From a virus, in IMG/VR virus record IMGVR_UViG_3300045988_128600: a DNA stretch of 25,779 nt. One strand, given 5' to 3'. A program made the translations under genes and the position numbers. The notes beneath the pieces were generated by a model. That model had not been told where the DNA came from. It ran no database searches and saw only the letters and a list, made by a program, of their open reading frames with translations. Shown here in pieces: positions 1-9,956 of this stretch. Positions within the stretch are counted from its first letter, which is position 1. The number at the start of each line of letters is the position of its first letter.

Positions 1-69
1 ACTGGCACTTTTAAATATAGAACTTCTACCACAGGTACTTGGACCCCTGTCCCCGTGGCTTGGATTTAA
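1..69 (+). CDS. Partial CDS, C-terminus only (…TGTFKYRTSTTGTWTPVPVAWI*). Unknown product, possibly the end of a structural or lysis-module protein.
   Basis: Open frame 1 runs from the window edge to TAA at 67-69. No homology is claimed. Confidence 0.3.
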   Translation, partial: TGTFKYRTSTTGTWTPVPVAWI

Positions 70-103
70 TATAAATTTATTATAAGAAAAAGGAGATAAT
101 ATT

Positions 104-514
104 ATGGATCAAAATTTGATTAATCAATTATTCCAAGTATGTTTAATTCCTATGCTTGGCGCTTTAACTACTTTTATAGTTATTTGGATTAAAGCAAAAA
201 GTGCGGAATTACAAAAGAAAACTAATAATGATATTTTAAATAAATATGTGCAAATGGCTACTGACACAATTACTAACTGTGTTATTGCCACTAATCAAAC
301 TTATGTAAATTCTCTTAAAGAACAAGGTAAATTTGATGAAGCTGCTCAAAAAGAAGCATTTTAGAGAACTTATCAAGCGGTGTTGCTTATTTTAAGTGAT
401 GACGCTAAAGAGTATTTGAATAATGCTTTTGGTGATTTAAATAAATATTTACAAGAGAAGATTGAGTCTACAGTAAATAATTATCGTACTCCAAGTAATG
501 ATTTAAAGCAATAA
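104..514 (+). CDS. Holin-like small membrane protein, 136 aa. It has one N-terminal transmembrane segment (LIPMLGALTTFIVIWI) followed by a charged, coiled C-terminus. It reads through an in-frame TAG at 362-364 to TAA at 512-514.
   Basis: RBS aaaaaGGAGAtaatatt precedes the ATG at 104. The TM-plus-KAK/charged-tail layout is typical of Gram-positive phage class-III-like holins (Cph1/EJ-1-like). After the TAG the frame stays open and protein-like (RTYQAVLLILSDDAKEYLNNAFGDLNKYLQEKIESTVNNYRTPSNDLKQ) and ends just before an intrinsic terminator. Confidence 0.55.
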
Positions 515-518
515 AAAT

Positions 519-560
519 AAGGGAGACATTCTTAATTGAATGTCTCCCTTATTTTTTTTT
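519..560. terminator. Bidirectional intrinsic terminator. A 13-bp stem AAGGGAGACATTC/GAATGTCTCCCTT is flanked by an A-run upstream and T10 downstream.
   Basis: A perfect inverted repeat lies at 519-550 with T-run 551-560. It sits between the convergent holin (+) and LytTR (-) genes. Confidence 0.8.
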
Positions 561-1275
561 ATCTGAATGGATTTTTCCATCGTCGATTAATTTCTTCATA
601 GCCTTTTTTAGGAAAGTATAAAATTTCACCATTTTTAAAAGTTAAATTATCTTTGTTCATTATTTTAATTTGATTTAAATTAATAATTAAACTTGGTGGA
701 ATAAAGACAAAATCTGGATGATAAACTAAAGTCCTTATATAGTTTTCAAAAGAAGTTTTTAAAGTTTTGCTATTTAGAACCTCATTTTCTAAATGGCAAC
801 ATAAATTTCGTTTTTGAATATCAGCATATAATACTTTACTCAAATCAATTTTTATTTCTCTATTAGGAGTATCTAAATATTTATATTCACGTCTTTTTTC
901 TTCTCTAACTTCATGTAAAATAGAAAAAATTTTTTCTTTATTAACAGGTTTTTTGACGAAATTAAATGCCTTTACTTCATAAGAAGCCACTCCATAATTT
1001 ATTTGGGAGGAAACAAAAATTATTTTTCCAATATACCCATTTGTTCTTAAAAGATGAGCTATTTCAATACCATCCATTTTTTTGAATGTAATCCCTAAAA
1101 AGATTGCATCATAATCAATATTGGAGTTAATTAATTTTTCAGGATCAGTAAATTTATATACATATCCTGGTAAATTAAAATCTTTAAAATACTGATTTAT
1201 TATTTCTTCCAATGAGTCATTTTGCTAATCGCTATTGTCGCAAACACCTACGATAAAAATTTTAATCACCTTCAT
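559..1275 (-). CDS. Orphan LytTR-family response regulator (AgrA/LytR-like). An N-terminal receiver-like domain has Gly in place of the phospho-acceptor Asp, and the C-terminus is a LytTR DNA-binding domain. There is one in-frame TAG near the N-terminus (MKVIKIFIVGVCDNSD*QNDSLEEIINQYF…).
   Basis: The track ORF 559..1212 extends in frame through a TAG to an ATG at 1273-1275, giving a receiver-like N-terminus MKVIKIFIV…. The receiver β3 position reads DAIFLGI (G where D is expected), β4 IIFVSS and β5 KKP are conserved. The LytTR domain is IKIDLSKVLYADIQKRNLCCHLENEVLNSKTLKTSFENYI…FIPPSLIINLNQI. No histidine kinase gene is adjacent. Confidence 0.65.
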
Positions 1276-1327
1276 TTTGTTTATTTTAGAAAAAATTTTT
1301 CTATCTTTATATTCTTTCTATATTATA

Positions 1328-1356
1328 ATTATACAAAAATTTTTAAATATTGTAAA
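1328..1356 (-). promoter_or_regulatory. Consensus sigma-A-type promoter on the - strand for the LytTR gene: TTTACA-17-TATAAT with a TG-extended -10.
   Basis: The - strand reads TTTACAatatttaaaaatttttgTATAAT. The -35 is at + 1351-1356, the -10 at + 1328-1333, with a 17-nt spacer. Confidence 0.6.
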
Positions 1357-1368
1357 ATAAAAAATTAT

Positions 1369-1425
1369 AAAGTGTCAAATTTATTTAATTTTAAGTAAGT
1401 GAAATTTTTATCCAAAAAGTGTCAG
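1369..1425. promoter_or_regulatory. Direct repeats AAAGTGTCA (1369-1377 and 1416-1424) with a degenerate third copy AAGTGAAAT (~1397-1405). These are candidate LytTR binding sites in the divergent promoter region. The second copy overlaps the -35 position of a good -10 TATAAT at 1430-1435 on the + strand.
   Basis: The 9-mer occurs twice exactly, about 47 bp apart, between the divergent LytTR gene and the + strand gene block. The + strand has TATAAT at 1430-1435 with a poor -35 (TTTATC), the usual layout for activator-dependent promoters. Confidence 0.4.
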
Positions 1426-1465
1426 TAATTATAATATATTTACACAAAATAAAAGTTATATAATA

Positions 1466-1494
1466 ATGAAAGGAAAAGATAAAACCTTTCATTA
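1466..1494 (+). promoter_or_regulatory. 9-bp hairpin AATGAAAGG(n11)CCTTTCATT in the 5' leader, immediately upstream of the RBS of the 1519 gene.
   Basis: Inverted repeat seen in the sequence. The RBS GGAGG is at 1506-1510. Confidence 0.3.
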
Positions 1495-1518
1495 TTATAT
1501 TTCTCCGGAGGTAATAAC

Positions 1519-1965
1519 ATGAATACTTATGGTTATCCATAGCAGTAGTATCCAATAGGTAATAATAGACCTATTTATGGAACAACTGCTACACCTGTGA
1601 TTCAAAACAATACTGCATAGCGAATTAGACCCGTTGCTTCTTTAGAAGAGGTTCGAGCTATGAATATAGATTTTGATGGTTCAGTTTTTTATTTTCCTGA
1701 CTATGCTAATCGTAGAATTTATACAAAACAAATAAATATGGATGGAACAGCTTCTATTAATATGTATGAATTAAAGGAAATCCCGAATTCTTCTTAGCCT
1801 AATAATGATTATATAACACGAGAGGAATTTAATACTACCTTAACTTCTATTAAAGAAGTTTTTGCATAGATCATGGGATCTAATAACGCGGTTGCGCCAT
1901 CTCAAGGAACGGATTAGCCAGCTCAATAGCAACCAGCAGAGAGCAAACCGCAGTTTAATTTTTAA
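1519..1965 (+). CDS. Hypothetical Q/P-rich protein, 148 aa, with 7 in-frame TAG codons. It is invisible to standard-code ORF calling.
   Basis: RBS tctccGGAGGtaataac precedes the ATG at 1519. The frame is open to TAA at 1963-1965 only if TAG is treated as sense. The TAGs fall in Q-rich low-complexity contexts (GYP*Q*YP, GTD*PAQ*QPAESKPQ), which suggests TAG codes Gln. Confidence 0.6.
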
Positions 1966-1977
1966 GGAGAGTTTCAA

Positions 1978-2226
1978 ATGACACAATCAATGAATCCAAT
2001 GCAAATTATTGCTATGATTAAAAACGGTCAAAATCCATAGCAATTAGTTTTATCTATGCTTGAAAGTCAAATGGGCGGAACGCCAATGGGCAATAATTTA
2101 TTACAAATGGCACGGAACGGTCAATCCGATGACATTGAAAAATTTGCTCGTAATTTGTTTGAATCAAGAGGTTTGAATTTCGATAAAGAATTTAATAGTT
2201 TTAAGTCCCAAATGGGGTTTAAATAA
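1978..2226 (+). CDS. Hypothetical small protein, 82 aa, one in-frame TAG.
   Basis: RBS AAGGAGAgtttcaa precedes the ATG at 1978. The frame is open to TAA at 2224-2226 with TAG treated as sense. Confidence 0.55.
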
Positions 2227-2252
2227 ATAAAATTATAGAAAGAGGTTTTGTT

Positions 2253-3134
2253 ATGTTTAATTACAATTATCCAATGAGCACGCCGAATTATTCATTATCT
2301 GATATTGCTGCGGCTTCTGGAAATGGCTATCGTAATAATGATGGCGGAATGTGGGGAGACGGAGCATGGTGGATTATTATCCTGTTCTTATTCTGCTTCA
2401 ATGGCTGGGGCGGTAATGGCTGGGGTAATAATGGTGCTAATGGTTCTGGTTTCCAAGGCACTACAACTCGAGAAGAAATCGGTTATGGTTTTAACATGAG
2501 CGATCTTAAATCTGGCGTTAATGGTTTAGCTTCTAGCCTTTGTAATGGTTTTAGTGGAGTAAACACTAATCTTTTAAGTGGTTTTGCTAATCTTGCTGAA
2601 ACTAATAATGCTAATACTCGCACTTTACAGAGTGATATCTGTAATATGGGTATGAACAATATGCAGAATACCTTTAGTATTACTTAGGCTATTAATGCTG
2701 ATACTGTAGCAAGTATGCAAAATACTAATAATTTAACTCAGCAGTTAAGTAATATGGCAGCTACTAACGCTCAATGCTGCTGCGAAAATAAACAGTTAAT
2801 TCAATCTAGTTTTGCTGATCTTAATTACAATCTTGCTAGTATTGCTTGCCAGAATCGTCAGGCTACCGTTGATGGTGTCCGCGATATTATTGACAACAAT
2901 AATGCTAATATGCGTTCTATTCTTGACTTCCTTGTTCAAGATAAAATTGAGACTCTTACCAGTGAAAATAGCACTCTTAAAAATTAGATTTCTCAAAATC
3001 TTCAAAATGCTTATCTTATTGATCAGTTGTCTCCAAAAGCAACTCCTGCTTATATTGTTGCTAATCCTTATACCGGCGTTAGTTATACTAGCTATGGATG
3101 CGGATATGGTTCAGGGTGCGGTTGCAATTCCTGA
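2253..3134 (+). CDS. Membrane-anchored Gly/Asn-rich protein, 293 aa, with 2 in-frame TAGs. It has an N-terminal hydrophobic segment (AWWIIILFLFCF), NGWG repeats, a coiled middle and a C-terminal GCGYGSGCGC tail. It resembles YjcZ-family small sporulation proteins.
   Basis: Track ORFs 2253..2687 and 2715..2987 are in the same frame, joined by TAG at 2685-2687, and continue through TAG at 2988-2990 to TGA at 3132-3134. RBS agaaAGAGGttttgtt is present. Confidence 0.6.
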
Positions 3135-3155
3135 TTGAAGAAAGAAGGTTAAATT

Positions 3156-3578
3156 ATGGAAATAACGGCTAATGCTTTACAATCAGTTGCTACTGGTTCT
3201 AATGTAGTATTCACTAACACAGCTGTTGCTGGAAACTGTTCCATAATGTATCGCGAGGGTAGCGGTTTAGTTACCCTCCGCGGTCTTACGAACGGTCAAC
3301 GCAGAGCTCGTTTCCGCATTTCATTTGGAGGTAATATAGGACTTCCAACTACTGGAACTGCGGGTGCTATTTCTTTGGCTATAGCTATTAATGGAGAGCC
3401 AGTTACTACTTCTACAATGATTTCCACTCCTACGGCTACTGGATAGTTTAATAATGTTTCACGTGCTTTATTCCTCGATGTGTTAGGCGGTTGTTGCACT
3501 CAAATCAGTATTGAAAACACGAGTTCATAGGCTATTGATGTTGAAAACGCCAGCTTAATTATCGAGAGAGTGGCATAA
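3156..3578 (+). CDS. BclA C-terminal-domain-like (C1q/TNF-like jelly-roll) protein without collagen repeats, 140 aa, with 2 in-frame TAGs.
   Basis: The C-terminus …ASLIIERVA* mirrors the BclA exosporium C-terminal domain ending …SIIIEKVA. An internal …ISLAIAINGEPV… matches the BclA …LTIQVNGVPV… region. RBS aagAAGGttaaatt is present. Track ORF 3156..3446 continues through TAG codons at 3444 and ~3528 to TAA at 3576-3578. Confidence 0.55.
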
Positions 3579-3591
3579 GGAGGTTTTTTAA

Positions 3592-4137
3592 ATGTGTGAT
3601 AAATTCCAAGAAATTAAAAAACAATTATTAACTCAAGTAGAAAGCCAAATGGCTCATTTAGAATGTGTTGATACAAAGGAAATGGGCGAAGTAATAGATA
3701 TGATAAAAGACCTTGAACAGGCTATTTATTATTGCACTATTACTGAAGCTATGAATGAATTACCTGAAACCACACATTATTATACTGAAAAATATAAATC
3801 TCCTCATAAAAAAAGAATCTATAAACCTATGACATATGATTATGATTGGGAAGATTATGATTATGATGAACATGAATATGAGATGCCAACGAGTGGGAAA
3901 TCTCATGAAACCCATGATAGTAGAGAGGGTCGTAGCGGTGTCCATAGAAAGATGTATATAGAAGCCAAAGAACTTCATAAAGATAAAAGCGTTTAGATAA
4001 AAGAATTAGATAAGTATCTTCAAGAATTAAGTTCTGATATAGTAGAAATGATTGAAGATGCTTCTAATGATGAACGTTCTTATATGGAGAAGAAAATCTA
4101 GGCTTTAGCATCTAAAATTGGATCTATGAATGGTTAA
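3592..4137 (+). CDS. Hypothetical acidic protein with a DYDYDEHEYE tract, 181 aa, 2 in-frame TAGs.
   Basis: Strong RBS AAGGAGGttttttaa precedes the ATG at 3592. The frame continues past TAG at 3994-3996 and a second TAG to TAA at 4135-4137. Confidence 0.55.
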
Positions 4138-4450
4138 TATTAATAATAGGAATTGGAGGATACTATTAGTATCTTCCAATCATCCTATGTTAATGCGGCC
4201 TTCTGGAATATATACTTTAGGTTCTTGTGATGATCCTACTTCAACAATTTATATTAATGAAAATATTACTAATAAAAAATTAAAAAAAGTATTAGCGCAT
4301 GAATTAACTCATGCTGCTATTTTTAGCTATGATATTTCATTAAAACCAGAAGAAGAAGAATTGATTGCGGATTTGGTGGGAACTTATGGTGAAGAAATTA
4401 TAAATAATACTAATCTTTTATTTAAATAGATAAAAAAAATAAGGGAATGA
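4130..4450 (+). CDS. Small HEXXH metallopeptidase-like protein (ImmA/IrrE-like motif VLAHELTHAAIF), ~106 aa. A TAG at 4427-4429 is followed by TGA at 4448-4450.
   Basis: An HExxH motif sits in a plausible helix context. The ATG at 4130 overlaps the stop of the upstream gene. If TAG acts as a stop here the protein is 7 aa shorter. Confidence 0.45.
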
Positions 4451-4483
4451 AACTATTTTTGTTTCATTCCCTTATTTTTTTTT
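4441..4483. terminator. Bidirectional intrinsic terminator. A 13-bp stem AAGGGAATGAAAC/GTTTCATTCCCTT is flanked by A8 upstream and T10 downstream. It lies between the convergent + and - gene blocks.
   Basis: Perfect inverted repeat. It shares the flanks AATAAGGGA…TCCCTTATTTTTTTTT with the terminator at 519-560. Confidence 0.8.
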
Positions 4484-4484
4484 A

Positions 4485-4913
4485 TTAGTCTTTAAGCGGT
4501 AATTTTAAAGTCCTTTCATAGTACTCTTTAGCCTATCCATTCCCACCTAAACCTGCATATACTTTAAAGAATTCGACTAACTATTCATACTGTCCTGAAG
4601 TCATATATCCTTGTTTTAAGAAACTTTGACATAATTGAATTAATCTAAATCTATAAGAAGCAAGAATTATTTCAATATATCTCTTACTAATTTTCTTCTC
4701 TTCTAATACAAAAGATCTCAAATTATTTAGATCTTCTTTGATTGGAGCTATATGGTCTTCAATTAATTCTTCTAATTGTTCATCTTTCTTTTCTTCTGCC
4801 AATTTTTGATACATTTTCATTTGAGTATAAATATATCTACAAAAGGCTAAGAGGCCAGCAGAAATAAGACCAAAAAATATTTCTATAAAATGCTAGGCAA
4901 TAAAAGTAGACAT
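4485..4913 (-). CDS. Hypothetical protein, 142 aa, with an N-terminal TM segment and a coiled coil, and 3 in-frame TAGs. It is the last gene of the - strand block.
   Basis: Strong RBS GGAAGGAGGtatttttt precedes the ATG at 4911-4913. Track ORF 4581..4820 is the TAG-bounded middle of this frame. The extensions on both sides are in frame and end at TAA 4485-4487. Confidence 0.5.
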
Positions 4914-4990
4914 AAAAAATACCTCCTTCCATTAACTTCTAATATATTTTAAAAGAAAGGAAGGAGGATTATTTATTTAAGGCCTATCTA

Positions 4991-5503
4991 TTATTCCCAA
5001 TTAAAATCATTATTGGAACTTTCTTTCGTGAAATATGCGGTATATAAACATATAGCATCACATATATCATCATTGGCTTTTATATTATATTTTTGCTATA
5101 CAAAATCAATATCGGCTTGTTTGAGAGTTTCACGTTTAATACTGCGACCAGTTTTAATTCCAAGTTTTTTGCGCCATTCACTGGCCTACATCAATTCTAA
5201 TGTTTTGGAAGTAAATGAAGAATTAACTCCATGTGCGCCCAACATTACTGCGCCTTGAAGCCACATTAATAAACGCGAAGTATCAGAATATCCATAAGTT
5301 TCAGGATGAACATCTTCCGCTACTATCTTCTCTATATTATATTTTTTTACTAATTCAATAATCTAATCTTGTATTTTTTGTATTCTATCTAAATTATTAG
5401 AGGAAATCGCGGTTAGCAGTCCATAATCTAACATTTCTCCCTCACTATTAGATACACAATAACCAGTAGATTTAGTAGATAAATCTAAAAAGAGGATATT
5501 CAA
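4991..5503 (-). CDS. ruvC: RuvC-family Holliday-junction resolvase, 170 aa, with 3 in-frame TAGs. It is completely missed by standard-code ORF calling.
   Basis: The - strand translation begins LNILFLDLSTKSTGYCV… (RuvC motif I), has …KIVAEDV… in the middle and ends …ANDDICDAICLYTAYF… (catalytic Asp region). RBS AAAGGAGGcaattac precedes a TTG start at 5501-5503. TAA lies at 4991-4993. Confidence 0.7.
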
Positions 5504-7158: not shown

Positions 7159-7630
7159 GTTTTAAATTAATAATGTTCTAATTGCGAGACCCGCGCAAAG
7201 GCAAAGTGATATCTCTTTCCTTTTGGATATATGGTCCATCAATTAGGTAATCGGCGGTTTTTAATATATTCTTAATTCTAATATTATTACTATTCTTTAA
7301 ATCATCATAAATATATCCAGTCCATACATATATTTTAATGTTTGGATATATTTTTTTAATTTCAGTAATAATTAAATTAGTTAAAAATTCGTTTTCAGGG
7401 CAGAGAGGTTCTCCACCCATAATACAAAGATTACGCTCAACATTATTCGCATTAATGGCAGTAATTAATTCATCTAATACTTTATTAGTAAATTCTTTGC
7501 CACCATTAAAATCCCATGTTTCAGGATTCTGGCATCCTTCACAATGGTGCGGACACCCTTGTGTAAAAAATGATACACATACTCCAGGCGCCGCTGCCAA
7601 ATCATTCTTTATAATTCCTGCATATTTCAT
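7136..7630 (-). CDS. nrdG: Anaerobic ribonucleotide reductase activating protein NrdG (radical SAM). The standard-code end is the TAG at 7178-7180. With TAG read-through it gains 13 aa and ends at TGA 7136-7138.
   Basis: The CxxxCxxC cluster GCPHHCEGC and overall NrdG similarity are present. The ATGA overlap with the nrdD stop places it immediately downstream of nrdD. Confidence 0.75.
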
Positions 7631-9882
7631 TCTAATGCTCCTGTATGTTTTACTCTTGCTTCAACTTCTTTTTGTTTGCCCCAATTGAAAGCAGTTTTAT
7701 AATTACCTGTAAGATAACCAGTTACACGACGCAATTGTTGGATATTATGGCTCCCGCACACAGGACAAGAATCATTAAACTCGTCACAATAACCACATTC
7801 AAGGCAAGTATCATTAGGAACATTTACTGCGAAATAAGGAATATCGTGGTCCATTGCATAATTAACAATAGTTTCAAGAGCATCAATATTGTGTTTTACA
7901 GTAGAATCAAGTTCAACATAAGTAATACATCCTGCGGATGAATAGCCAGTCAGCTCAGATTCAATATCAATTTTTTCAAACGGACTCATTTCTTTCCACA
8001 CTGGAACATGAATACTATTAGTGAAAAATTCTCTATCACTAACATTAGGAATAATTCCATACCTTTCTTTAAATTTTGTCATAGCAGTATAACATAAATT
8101 TTCTGCGGGTGTATAATAAACTCCAAAATTTAATTTATATTTTTCTTTATACTCGGCGCATCTATCTTTAAATAATTGTTCAATTCGTTTAGCTAATTCC
8201 ATTCCTTCTGAAGTGGTGTGGTCTTTACCAATAAGAATTTGAAGAGTTTCAGCCAAACCTAACTGACCAATAGCAAGAGTTCCATGCTTAAGAGCAGAAC
8301 GAATTCCCTCTTCTGGGATATAGCCTGCCATAACGTTATTTTCATACATAAATTTCGCGGAGCCTGGGTCTTGAGAGCAAATCCACTCAAAACGTTCCAT
8401 TAACTGAATACGTGCTTCATTGATTTTTCTATCGAGTAAAGACATAAATCGTTCTACACCAATTTTAGTCCGTTCTTCTTGGGACAACGATTTATAGTCC
8501 TCCCAATTATCATTTTCATTTAGAGTAACGGCCATCATCGCAAGAGTAGGAAGAATAATAGTAACAGGACAAATATTTCCACGTCCATCTTTAAGCTGAC
8601 CGAATCCATTAATATCCCAACCATTTGCAGTTCTGCATCCCATCGTAGAAAAATAAGTGCGAGGATCATTAATATCATATCCCGCATTACCAGACCAATC
8701 AACATTTGCATAATTAGGATAAAGGCGTCTCGCGGTGCTTTCTAATGCTAATCTATATAAATCATAATTAGGATCACTAGGCTTGCGGTTAACACCTTTC
8801 ATACATTGAAAAATTCCACAAGGAAAAATTGAAGTTTTATGCAATTTACCAAGACCTTCAATAGAAACATCTAATAACGCCTTAGTTACCATTCTGCCTT
8901 CAGGCTTGGTGCAAGTGCCATAATTGATACTTGTAAATGGTAATTGATTACCACTACGAGATTGTAAAGTATTAAGATTATGGTAAAGGCCTTCTGCAGC
9001 TTGATGAGTTTCGCGAGTGGTCATTTTCATAGCGTATTTATATGCTTTTGGAAATGATTTATAAAAATCATCATCAATAGGAGTTTCTTTACTGTAACAA
9101 CCATCATATTTACTCATATCTAATCCTTCATATAAAAATTCAATACCATCATTGAAATGTTTAAAGAAAGATTTTCTTACATAAGGAACCATAGTCCAAT
9201 CTAAGTGAGTAGCACTAACTCCACCAAACTAACAAAGACTTTGGATTTGAAAAATAACAGCAATTAATTGAAACGCTGTATTAATTGAACCCGCAGGACG
9301 AACATCTGCTTGACGAGTATTAAATCCATTAGCAAGCAAATTATCAAAAGGAATACTTAAACAGTTATGAGAACCAACATAATAAGAATCAAGATCGTGA
9401 GTATAAATAATATTATCAATATGATTCTTACGAGCCATAGGGGAAAGTAAGTAATCAAGCGCAAGTTGTTTGGTGACAACACTACTTGCTTCACCTATAC
9501 GGCCACCGAATGAATGTTCATCAACATTAGCATTTTGATTTTTTACATTATTACCATCGAGCTTTTCACGAATTGCTTTAATAAAATCATCTTTTTTATT
9601 ACGAGCAACTTCTTTTTTATATCTATATCTGATATAAGCACGAGCAACATCGCGTCGCTCAGAACGCATTAAATAATCTTCAATCCAATCTTGAAGATCT
9701 TCTACTCCAACACTTCCATCGGGGAAATGATTTATTTGTCTTTCAATGTCTTCCGCAATATCTTTCGCGGTATCATCTTCATATAATTTACCATCAACTT
9801 CAATAAATGCTTTATTTATTGCGTTAATAATTTTCTTTTTATTAAATTGAGTTATACTTCCATCACGTTTAATAATATACAA
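7627..9882 (-). CDS. nrdD: Anaerobic ribonucleoside-triphosphate reductase NrdD (class III RNR), ~751 aa, one in-frame TAG at 9229-9231.
   Basis: Track ORFs 9229..9897 (ATP-cone N-terminus) and 7627..9192 (catalytic core with the C-terminal CxxC…CxxC Zn ribbon and glycyl-radical region) are in the same frame, separated only by TAG (…IQSLC*FGGVSATHLDWTMVPYVRK…). The likely start is the TTG at 9880-9882, 8 nt after GGAGG (MYIIKRDGS…). Confidence 0.8.
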
Positions 9883-9956
9883 TTTTTTTGCCTCCAAACT
9901 AAATATAGTAGTTCTTTTAGAATATTCTATTATATTTAGGTTTTGTTAGTAAATAA

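Follow-up and report, generated by a model that had tools for sequence, protein, structure and literature searches.

A conserved, mobile six-gene phage cassette with a predicted stand-alone BclA/C1q/TNF-like protein, tentatively read as a stalk-and-knob assembly module

In this study, we performed a computational analysis of a six-gene region (g1 to g6, + strand, positions 1519-4450) in IMG/VR virus record IMGVR_UViG_3300045988_128600, a stretch of 25,779 nucleotides that is called the window at its full length. Our analyses demonstrated that g1 to g6 make up a single conserved, colinear cassette, not a set of loose morons, and that it has been transferred as a whole among unrelated gut-Clostridia phages. 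The product of its fourth gene is predicted to have a BclA/C1q/TNF-like fold. We tentatively favour a reading of the cassette as a late, mobile stalk-and-knob assembly module, which would be analogous to, and not the same as, the BclA/ExsF nap of the exosporium. Seen as a cassette, six 'hypothetical proteins' become one unit that can be tested, and Butyrivibrio virus Ceridwen, one of the carriers, offers a cultivable entry point for this. An earlier note on this DNA, drawn up by a model from the sequence alone, had proposed spore-coat or exosporium-like morons here, and the present analysis corrects this tempting spore-coat-gene reading whichever site of action holds.

Read with the standard bacterial code (table 11), positions 1519-4450 contain only short open reading frames (ORFs). 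With TAG taken as sense, six + strand ORFs cover the region:

1519-1965, + strand: g1, 148 aa, 7 in-frame TAG
1978-2226, + strand: g2, 82 aa, 1 in-frame TAG
2253-3134, + strand: g3, 293 aa, 2 in-frame TAG
3156-3578, + strand: g4, 140 aa, 2 in-frame TAG
3592-4137, + strand: g5, 181 aa, 2 in-frame TAG
4130-4450, + strand: g6, 106 aa, 1 in-frame TAG

The intergenic gaps measure 13-27 nt, and the end of g5 overlaps the start of g6 by 8 nt. These ORFs agree exactly with those that the earlier note had described with TAG read as Gln (Q), and the motifs it quoted are all present (...ASLIIERVA at the end of g4, NGWG and GCGYGSGCGC in g3, DYDYDEHEYE in g5 and HELTH in g6). Each gene has homologues in related loci, and all six are real. 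Among the standard-code homologues, Q is the commonest residue at 5 of the 15 TAG positions (g1 aa10, g2 aa21, g3 aa145, g4 aa125 and g5 aa135), although most aligned sequences have a gap at g3 aa145. TAG therefore encodes Gln, and this alignment together with the restored full-length genes identifies a recoded phage of the genetic code 15 type. A tRNA scan of the window found none, hence no suppressor tRNA lies inside it.

The same note had called this block the one most heavily loaded with TAG. Inside the window this is correct: TAG makes up 15 of 950 codons in the cassette against 27 of 7000 elsewhere (Fisher p = 6e-5), that is, 1.6% of codons and 28% of Gln codons, compared with 0.39% and 10.5% in the rest of the window. 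The load is not exceptional for the phage, however. In the near-identical phage L003, the tail genes have 0.8-1.5% TAG, which matches the cassette and exceeds most replication genes, and the cassette is thus ordinary in this respect. Late genes of recoded phages tend to carry the recoded stop codon; since the load of the cassette equals that of the L003 tail genes, we place it in the late class, probably expressed late in lytic infection.

Related DNA was drawn from phage records (Ceridwen and Dulem viruses 33, 35 and 39), metagenome contigs and a GTDB scan (35 loci), and the cassette genes were counted by iterative hidden Markov model (HMM) searches of the ORFs in 43 loci. g4 is present in all 43 loci, followed by g3 (41), g1 (39), g5 (30), g2 (27) and g6 (25). 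Gene order from g1 to g6 and the single strand are kept in 43 of 43 loci, and the full set of six in 22; g1 is always the first of the six, and g2 lies between g1 and g3. This colinearity had gone unremarked in the earlier note. One broad lineage of large phages accounts for about half of the loci, and near-identical copies are found on contigs of ~195-198 kb. In recoded and standard-code members of this lineage alike, the cassette is invariably bordered by the holin gene on one side and by convergent RuvC/dUTPase/Nrd/Pol III genes on the other, and the flanks examined hold no integrase. The other loci are unrelated small siphoviruses (variant B), where counterparts of g5 and g2 exist even when the HMM missed them.

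A comparison of homologue positions, as the earlier note had proposed, revealed that these differ by phage. The variant-B cassettes lie after tail/lysis genes and before the integrase, beside the integrase (Dulem virus 39), or inside the head module between the minor and major capsid genes (Dulem virus 35); in Ceridwen, Dulem virus 33 and locus L042 the cassette is 3' of endolysin or holin. With terminators on both sides, a promoter-like region of its own and variable genomic positions, the layout is moron-like, as had been supposed, but the cassette is not patchy within its lineage: the large phages keep it at a fixed position with core-like conservation. Median identities to the window across 14 diverged members of that lineage were 61% for g4, 60% for NrdG, 59% for dUTPase, 54% for g1 and for g6, 53% for the holin, 51% for g2, 46% for g3, 38% for g5 and 33% for RuvC. 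g4 is the best-conserved gene of the region and is 40-60% identical across unrelated phages, and the cassette is under purifying selection.

Most carrier contigs were binned with Clostridia, and homologues of g3 and g4 come from human, ruminant, rabbit and lemur gut metagenomes. Host inference from bins of metagenome-assembled genomes (MAGs) was discarded as unreliable, with L009, L014, L017, L026, L032 and L038 falling into Mollicutes, Methanobrevibacter, Alistipes and Akkermansia bins. Two different cassette-bearing phage contigs share one 'Mollicutes' MAG, and these bins look like artefacts. PHROG families 20016, 16490, 21718 and 1233 and gut-phage entries named 'BclA protein' include g4, g3, g1 and g6 and assign no function to them. 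The protein families (of unknown function in PHROG) and the 'BclA protein' labels were thus already known; our literature searches on phage BclA/C1q proteins and phage-encoded spore-surface genes found no description of the six genes as one cassette, and what appears to be new is the cassette as a unit and a TNF-like protein freed from the collagen stalk.

The structural prediction that carries our reading concerns g4, whose 140-aa product is a stand-alone jelly roll with conserved Cys28 and Cys113-Cys114. Its AlphaFold2 (AF2) monomer model rests on 26 aligned close homologues, headed by P0001, which is 99% identical to the window protein. The model is all-beta (pLDDT, predicted local distance difference test, 80; pTM, predicted template modelling score, 0.77), it shows the TNF/C1q-like jelly-roll arrangement, and its best structural matches are the spore-surface proteins F-BclA, BclA and ExsFA. 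Structure prediction, the check proposed in the earlier note, thus returned the BclA/C1q/TNF-like fold, and the absence of collagen repeats stated there was confirmed from the sequence. The window protein itself has no sequence match in Pfam (E<=1), NCBIfam or the PDB in direct searches, including phmmer against the PDB, and a search of PDB sequences with the family profile did not retrieve any BclA chain. Single scans of 62 diverse family members gave six that matched Pfam BclA_C (PF18573), with a best E of 6.2e-7, and a distant homology of g4 to BclA_C is plausible on these matches. The protein had been described as 'clearly related' to the BclA C-terminal domain (CTD); the predicted fold and the six members speak for a relationship, but 'clearly' was too strong for a window protein that has no match itself. 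The family is large, with 4719 homologue clusters and 625 family clusters at 50% identity, nearly all of them stand-alone proteins of ~140 aa. g4 falls into PHROG 20016 (unknown function, E 1.3e-48), and the nearest models in BFVD are stand-alone gut-phage proteins, two of them labelled 'BclA protein'.

g4 differs from the known systems in several respects. It is not BclA proper, with no exosporium leader or GXY repeats before the domain, and starts straight at the beta domain. The BclA CTD (PF18573; PDB 1wck) and the F-BclA-CTD (9h38) form the knobs of the exosporium nap and of the F-ENA tip fibrils, whereas g4 is a separate polypeptide without collagen stalk or leader. Its gene is part of a phage operon for which the TAG load points to late expression, and it is also found in Ceridwen, the phage of a non-sporulating host. 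ExsFA/BxpB (ExsF; PDB 7r1m, 9h3d) is a stand-alone TNF-like trimer that anchors the BclA and F-Anchor leaders, and no sequence similarity of g4 to it was detected; moreover, the proposed partner of g4, g3, would be a coiled coil and not collagen, and the candidate docking peptide is C-terminal and not N-terminal. The interface of the stand-alone ExsF trimer has clefts in which F-Anchor docks through its Pro-rich leader peptide, as BclA is inferred to do (PMC12357932).

A TNF-like domain might also serve as the distal head of a fibre, which would make the cassette a receptor-binding or host-range module, as the earlier note had offered among its options. Just 5' of the holin gene, L003 encodes tail-fibre-like products, a label that comes from reading the translations, with no family search behind it. 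However, receptor-binding heads normally diverge fastest, and in the large phages no gene of the region has a higher median identity than g4, which also stays conserved across unrelated phages; in nearly all of the 625 family clusters it is a bare domain of 140 aa with no shaft or attachment region. Neither fast divergence nor fusion to a fibre shaft was found, and we consider this option extremely improbable.

More than 7465 homologue clusters, without a Pfam match or a name, make up the family of the g3 product, which also falls into PHROG 16490 (unknown function, E 6.9e-31). Its conserved N-terminus reads MFN..YSLSDIAAA (alignment A2), and it contains a hydrophobic core (WWIIILFLFCF), G/W/N-rich linkers and a conserved CCC motif. 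At the C-terminus, a Gly/Cys/Tyr tail carries the motif PAYxVxNPY, in which P265, Y267, V269, N271, P272 and Y273 are invariant or nearly so. In the AF2 model, whose quality was too low for a fold search, residues 82-154 and 159-259 form two long helices, and the tail is disordered. Searches of the g3 profile against PDB sequences gave only chance-level coiled-coil or low-complexity matches, and weak matches to 'spike protein/glycoprotein' in crAss-like phages (E 2e-3 to 8e-3) were attributed to coiled-coil composition. A double-glycine leader at the N-terminus (2253-2330; motif YSLSDIAAATGG, YSLSDIAAATG(G)) was likewise kept as a lead only: the consensus of such leaders is LSxxELxxIxGG, and the terminal Gly-Gly is not conserved in A2. 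The comparison with YjcZ made in the earlier note did not hold either. YjcZ-family proteins are tens of residues long, whereas g3 has 293 residues, of which ~180 are predicted as long helix, and forms its own large family; it has no NCBIfam match at E<=1 and none in Pfam, and the likeness is only one of composition, a short hydrophobic core between Gly-rich and Cys/Tyr-rich stretches.

These features of g3 also bear on an accessory role in lysis or egress, in which the cassette would act with the holin at the membrane, g3 being a membrane-active coiled coil and the other products regulators or effectors released through the holin lesions. With its hydrophobic segment near the N-terminus, its pair of long helices and its conserved cysteines, g3 recalls i-spanins, and the cassette follows the holin gene in the large phages and endolysin or holin genes in Ceridwen, Dulem virus 33 and L042. 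Its mobility fits as well, lysis cassettes being among the most freely exchanged phage modules. However, the hosts of the cassette phages are monoderm, so there is no outer membrane to fuse, and a transmembrane helix would normally be longer than the hydrophobic core of g3. In addition, the cassettes of Dulem virus 35 (head genes) and Dulem virus 39 (integrase) lie away from lysis genes, a terminator and a separate promoter stand between cassette and holin gene, and we know of no precedent in lysis systems for a TNF-like trimer with low-complexity proteins. On balance, a lysis role seems unlikely.

Three further products would be partners of g3 and g4 in the stalk-and-knob reading. g1 has Y/Q/P-rich ends and a conserved domain of ~55 aa with a 'YVTREEF' helix (alignment A5), and belongs to PHROG 21718 (unknown function, E 3.4e-7). 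g2 is a small Q/N/M-rich protein to which Pfam, PHROG and NCBIfam assign no family. g5 is acidic (net charge -14), with helical ends, a Tyr/Asp/Arg/Gly-rich low-complexity centre and a conserved SREGRS motif; in alignment A7, which includes the variant-B counterparts, D36, K39, Y46 and G113 are invariant. The profiles of g1 and g5 gave chance-level coiled-coil or low-complexity matches only among PDB sequences. These proteins had been compared to low-complexity proteins of the spore-coat kind: g1 and g5 are indeed of low complexity, but the spore likeness of g1, g2 and g5 is compositional only, and none of them matches a coat or exosporium family in Pfam or NCBIfam. Pfam, NCBIfam, PHROG and the source names supply no function for g1, g2, g3 or g5.

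The last gene, g6, had been noted as a tiny HEXXH peptidase-like protein, and our results agree. The metal-binding motif HExxH with a downstream Glu is invariant (H57, E58, H61, E77), the protein scores 24.7 bits against Pfam DUF2268 (cut-off 23.6), and 8-12 family members match Peptidase_M78, DUF6782 and SprT-like families. The g6 profile found the 110-residue MJ1213 in the PDB (E 1.3e-4), which we take to be the minigluzincin selecase; g6 also falls into PHROG 1233 (unknown function, E 1.9e-14). By these matches, g6 is a minimal HExxH…E zincin resembling selecase, with predicted activity. With selecase and the minigluzincins (MJ1213; PDB 4qhf-4qhj) and with ImmA/IrrE (M78), g6 (~105 aa) shares HExxH and the Glu, although its scores are weak. 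ImmA is usually paired with a helix-turn-helix repressor, and g6 is not. In variant B, g6 is missing and the cassette opens with a 125-aa protein of PHROG 3754, directly or closely 5' of g1 (L001, L002, L008, L024, L026, L027, L029, L031, L036, L037, L041 and L042). This protein has no Pfam match; its GDC…GHVV…DxWDS pattern looks like a Cys/His/Asp triad of the papain, C39 or transglutaminase type. g6 (27 loci) and the PHROG 3754 protein (12 loci) never occur together, although the cassettes are otherwise homologous.

Taken as a stalk-and-knob module, the cassette could work as follows. First, g4 would trimerise and serve, like the BclA-CTD or ExsF, as a stand-alone knob or docking platform. 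Second, g3 would be a long coiled-coil stalk held by its short hydrophobic segment, and its PAYxVxNPY tail may dock on the g4 trimer much as the F-Anchor leader docks in the inter-subunit clefts of ExsF. Third, g1, g2 and g5 would act as low-complexity adaptor or matrix partners, g1 possibly as a lineage-specific adaptor. Fourth, g6 may process a partner, most likely g5, since the 8-nt overlap suggests translational coupling of the two genes; in variant B the unrelated Cys/His enzyme would substitute for it. By inspection, none of the six proteins has a signal-peptide-like N-terminus, and assembly would therefore be cytoplasmic.

Several findings weigh against this reading. The hydrophobic core of g3 measures 11-16 residues with almost no flanking K/R, which makes a true membrane anchor doubtful, and the g3 model is of low confidence (pLDDT 51.6). 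g1, g2 and g5 matched nothing in Pfam or NCBIfam, whether as window proteins or as 12-16 diverse members per family. At L011 (90-902), g1 is followed directly by g4, and g4, g5 and g6 are kept without g2 and g3; in the metagenomic ORFs P0296, P0315, P0269 and P0247, the N-terminal part of g1 or of the Cys/His protein is fused in frame to g4, in P0296 at a shared 'GS(G)' sequence. L011 and these fusions may be deletion derivatives or assembly chimeras. Given such loci, g4 may work without g3. Furthermore, a dedicated promoter apart from the tail/holin unit would also fit a conditional, host-directed function, and the Ceridwen paper reports no virion proteome.

As for where such a module would be deposited, progeny virions are a fair possibility and the inner face of the membrane or the lysis apparatus a possible, somewhat less likely one; the spore surface is improbable, and other sites take up the remainder. 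If the module decorates virions or membranes, the docking principle of BclA/ExsF would extend from spores to phages. A bolder version, which we regard as unlikely, would make the cassette a portable kit: an exosporium-like coat or nap built in the cytoplasm, with a BclA/ExsF-type knob on a coiled-coil stalk among cross-linkable Cys/Tyr/Gln-rich partners, laid on virions or, in sporulating hosts, on spores, and hardening outside the reducing, anoxic cell. If this were true, such a coat kit would be present in thousands of phages of gut Clostridia and would be their equivalent of spore armour, serving transmission from host to host.

The reading closest to the original idea is remodelling of the spore surface, in which exosporium- or coat-like phage proteins would be laid on the developing spore of the host in the mother-cell cytoplasm. 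The structural matches of g4 are to spore-surface proteins; coat and exosporium proteins assembled by the mother cell also lack signal peptides, as the six proteins appear to do; and the Cys-, Tyr- and Gln-rich low-complexity composition is cross-linkable. Many Clostridia sporulate, and most carrier contigs were binned there. Nevertheless, the cassette is present in Ceridwen, a phage of Butyrivibrio fibrisolvens DSM 3071 that was observed only in the lytic cycle. B. fibrisolvens is non-sporulating. Additionally, translation requires read-through of TAG (7 in g1) at a load like that of tail genes, which fits productive late infection and not a quiescent carrier state; beyond the distant BclA_C link, no coat, exosporium or YjcZ family was matched in Pfam or NCBIfam; TNF-like folds also occur commonly in viral proteins and at the tips of phage fibres; and inheritance in the large phages is core-like at a fixed position without an integrase in the examined flanks. 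Ceridwen, the tail-like TAG load and the negative searches for spore families argue against the exosporium-moron proposal, and we judge an action on spores very unlikely, although it would represent a new class of phage auxiliary genes.

The cassette is likely its own transcription unit, because strong terminators are predicted on both of its sides; a promoter-like region precedes g1. The surrounding features are:

104-514, + strand: holin-like gene (PHROG 13712 'holin', 6.7e-38; weak match to Pfam Holin_LLH)
513-556, both strands: bidirectional intrinsic terminator, 19-bp stem with T runs on both strands, between the holin and response-regulator genes
559-1275, - strand: orphan response regulator with receiver and LytTR domains (Pfam Response_reg 5.7e-9, LytTR 6.5e-4), divergent from the cassette
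1276-1518, + strand: promoter/leader region of the cassette, 243 bp
4434-4480, both strands: bidirectional intrinsic terminator, 20-bp stem with T runs on both strands, closing the cassette against the convergent replication-side genes

The region had been placed next to the holin. A holin-like gene is indeed found at 104-514, and its homologues stand directly 5' of the cassette throughout the large-phage lineage, but in the window the terminator and the LytTR gene intervene. We read the holin-like gene as the last gene of an upstream late tail/holin unit; in related loci, too, a terminator-like hairpin with a T run lies 3' of the holin gene.

The succession of terminator, promoter, genes and terminator would equally suit a host-directed moron acting in lysogenic conversion, superinfection exclusion or defence, independently of virion production. 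In small temperate phages the cassette stands at the end of the late operon next to the integrase, and its composition is unlike that of its neighbours: in a window of ~29% G+C (GC), the cassette has 33-41%, with 35-37% over positions 2001-4000, and the neighbours 26-33%, and CAG accounts for 11 of 39 non-TAG Gln codons in the cassette against 19 of 231 in the neighbours. The higher GC and CAG use may reflect amino-acid composition or foreign origin. On the other side, the PADLOC defence models matched none of the six proteins and two neighbours; the large-phage lineage passes the cassette on vertically, with core-like conservation at a fixed position; the genes are heavily recoded with TAG like tail genes; and Ceridwen, seen only in the lytic cycle, carries the cassette. 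A host-directed function is thus distinctly unlikely in our assessment, and the stalk-and-knob module remains the reading that we favour.

Within the promoter region, a -10-like TATAAT is followed by AATGAAAGG at 1459-1473, and this element is conserved in diverged relatives. Upstream, at ~1369-1425, are three repeats resembling AAGTGTCA / AAGTAAGTGA, ~23 nt apart. In relatives, the holin terminator is followed by tandem ATTTTTGGCAAAA-like repeats and then by the conserved TATAAT-AATGAAAGG 5' of g1; the sub-lineage of the window has AAGTGTCA-like repeats in place of the ATTTTTGGCAAAA repeats, beside the inserted LytTR gene. That gene occurs only in the close relatives of the window (L003-L006 and L009) and is absent from L044 and L046. 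It is possibly a regulator of the cassette, and together with the AAGTGTCA-like repeats it may represent a swapped regulator/operator pair. No kinase gene was seen near the LytTR regulator, which sits between the holin terminator and the cassette promoter. In L012, L013, L017, L018, L021 and L023, tandem ATTTTTGG(C/A)AAA repeats stand 5' of TATAAT-AATGAAAGG at the cassette promoter; the repeat occurs nowhere else in most of these 12-kb loci, with one extra copy in L023. Conserved promoter-proximal motifs are thus restricted to the cassette promoter in most of the relatives searched.

A perfect 16-bp inverted repeat at 1458-1500 (TATAATAATGAAAGG…CCTTTCATTATTATA) overlaps the -10-like element and ends ~7 nt 5' of the GGAGG ribosome-binding site of g1. 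Its predicted RNA hairpin has a folding energy of -18.3 kcal/mol (z = -4.6), and the repeat is kept in L009 and degenerate in L003-L006. The upstream repeats were considered as Spo0A boxes, sigma-54 elements or canonical -35 boxes and set aside for poor matches and spacing, with no dedicated test made. A search of Rfam on positions 1-5200 found only the terminator hairpins, which matched miRNA models by chance. The two terminators (513-556 and 4434-4480) have near-identical arm sequences (AAAAATAAGGGA…TCCCTTATTTTT).

From position 4485 on, the minus strand carries a replication and nucleotide module (RuvC-like, dUTPase, NrdG, NrdD, guanylate kinase and Pol III alpha), in which dUTPase, NrdG, NrdD, guanylate kinase and Pol III alpha were named through the Pfam families of near-identical L003 genes. 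The nearest genes of this strand, 4485-4913 (142 aa, with a hydrophobic N-terminal segment) and 4991-5503 (RuvC-like resolvase), contain 2-2.8% TAG; in this they match the late genes and differ from the other replication-module genes. A single 756-aa gene encodes NrdD in the window (7627-9897), whereas it is split in two at L044:15301-18013 and L046:15420-18582, with a GIY-YIG/NUMOD homing-endonuclease gene separating the halves in L046. Beyond the left end of the window, L003:1-6916 encodes a 2567-aa protein and tail-fibre-like products of 505, 206 and 323 aa 5' of the holin gene. No endolysin is visible beside the holin gene in L003, and L044 encodes a 1561-aa protein with Peptidase_M15_3 and GH25 domains.

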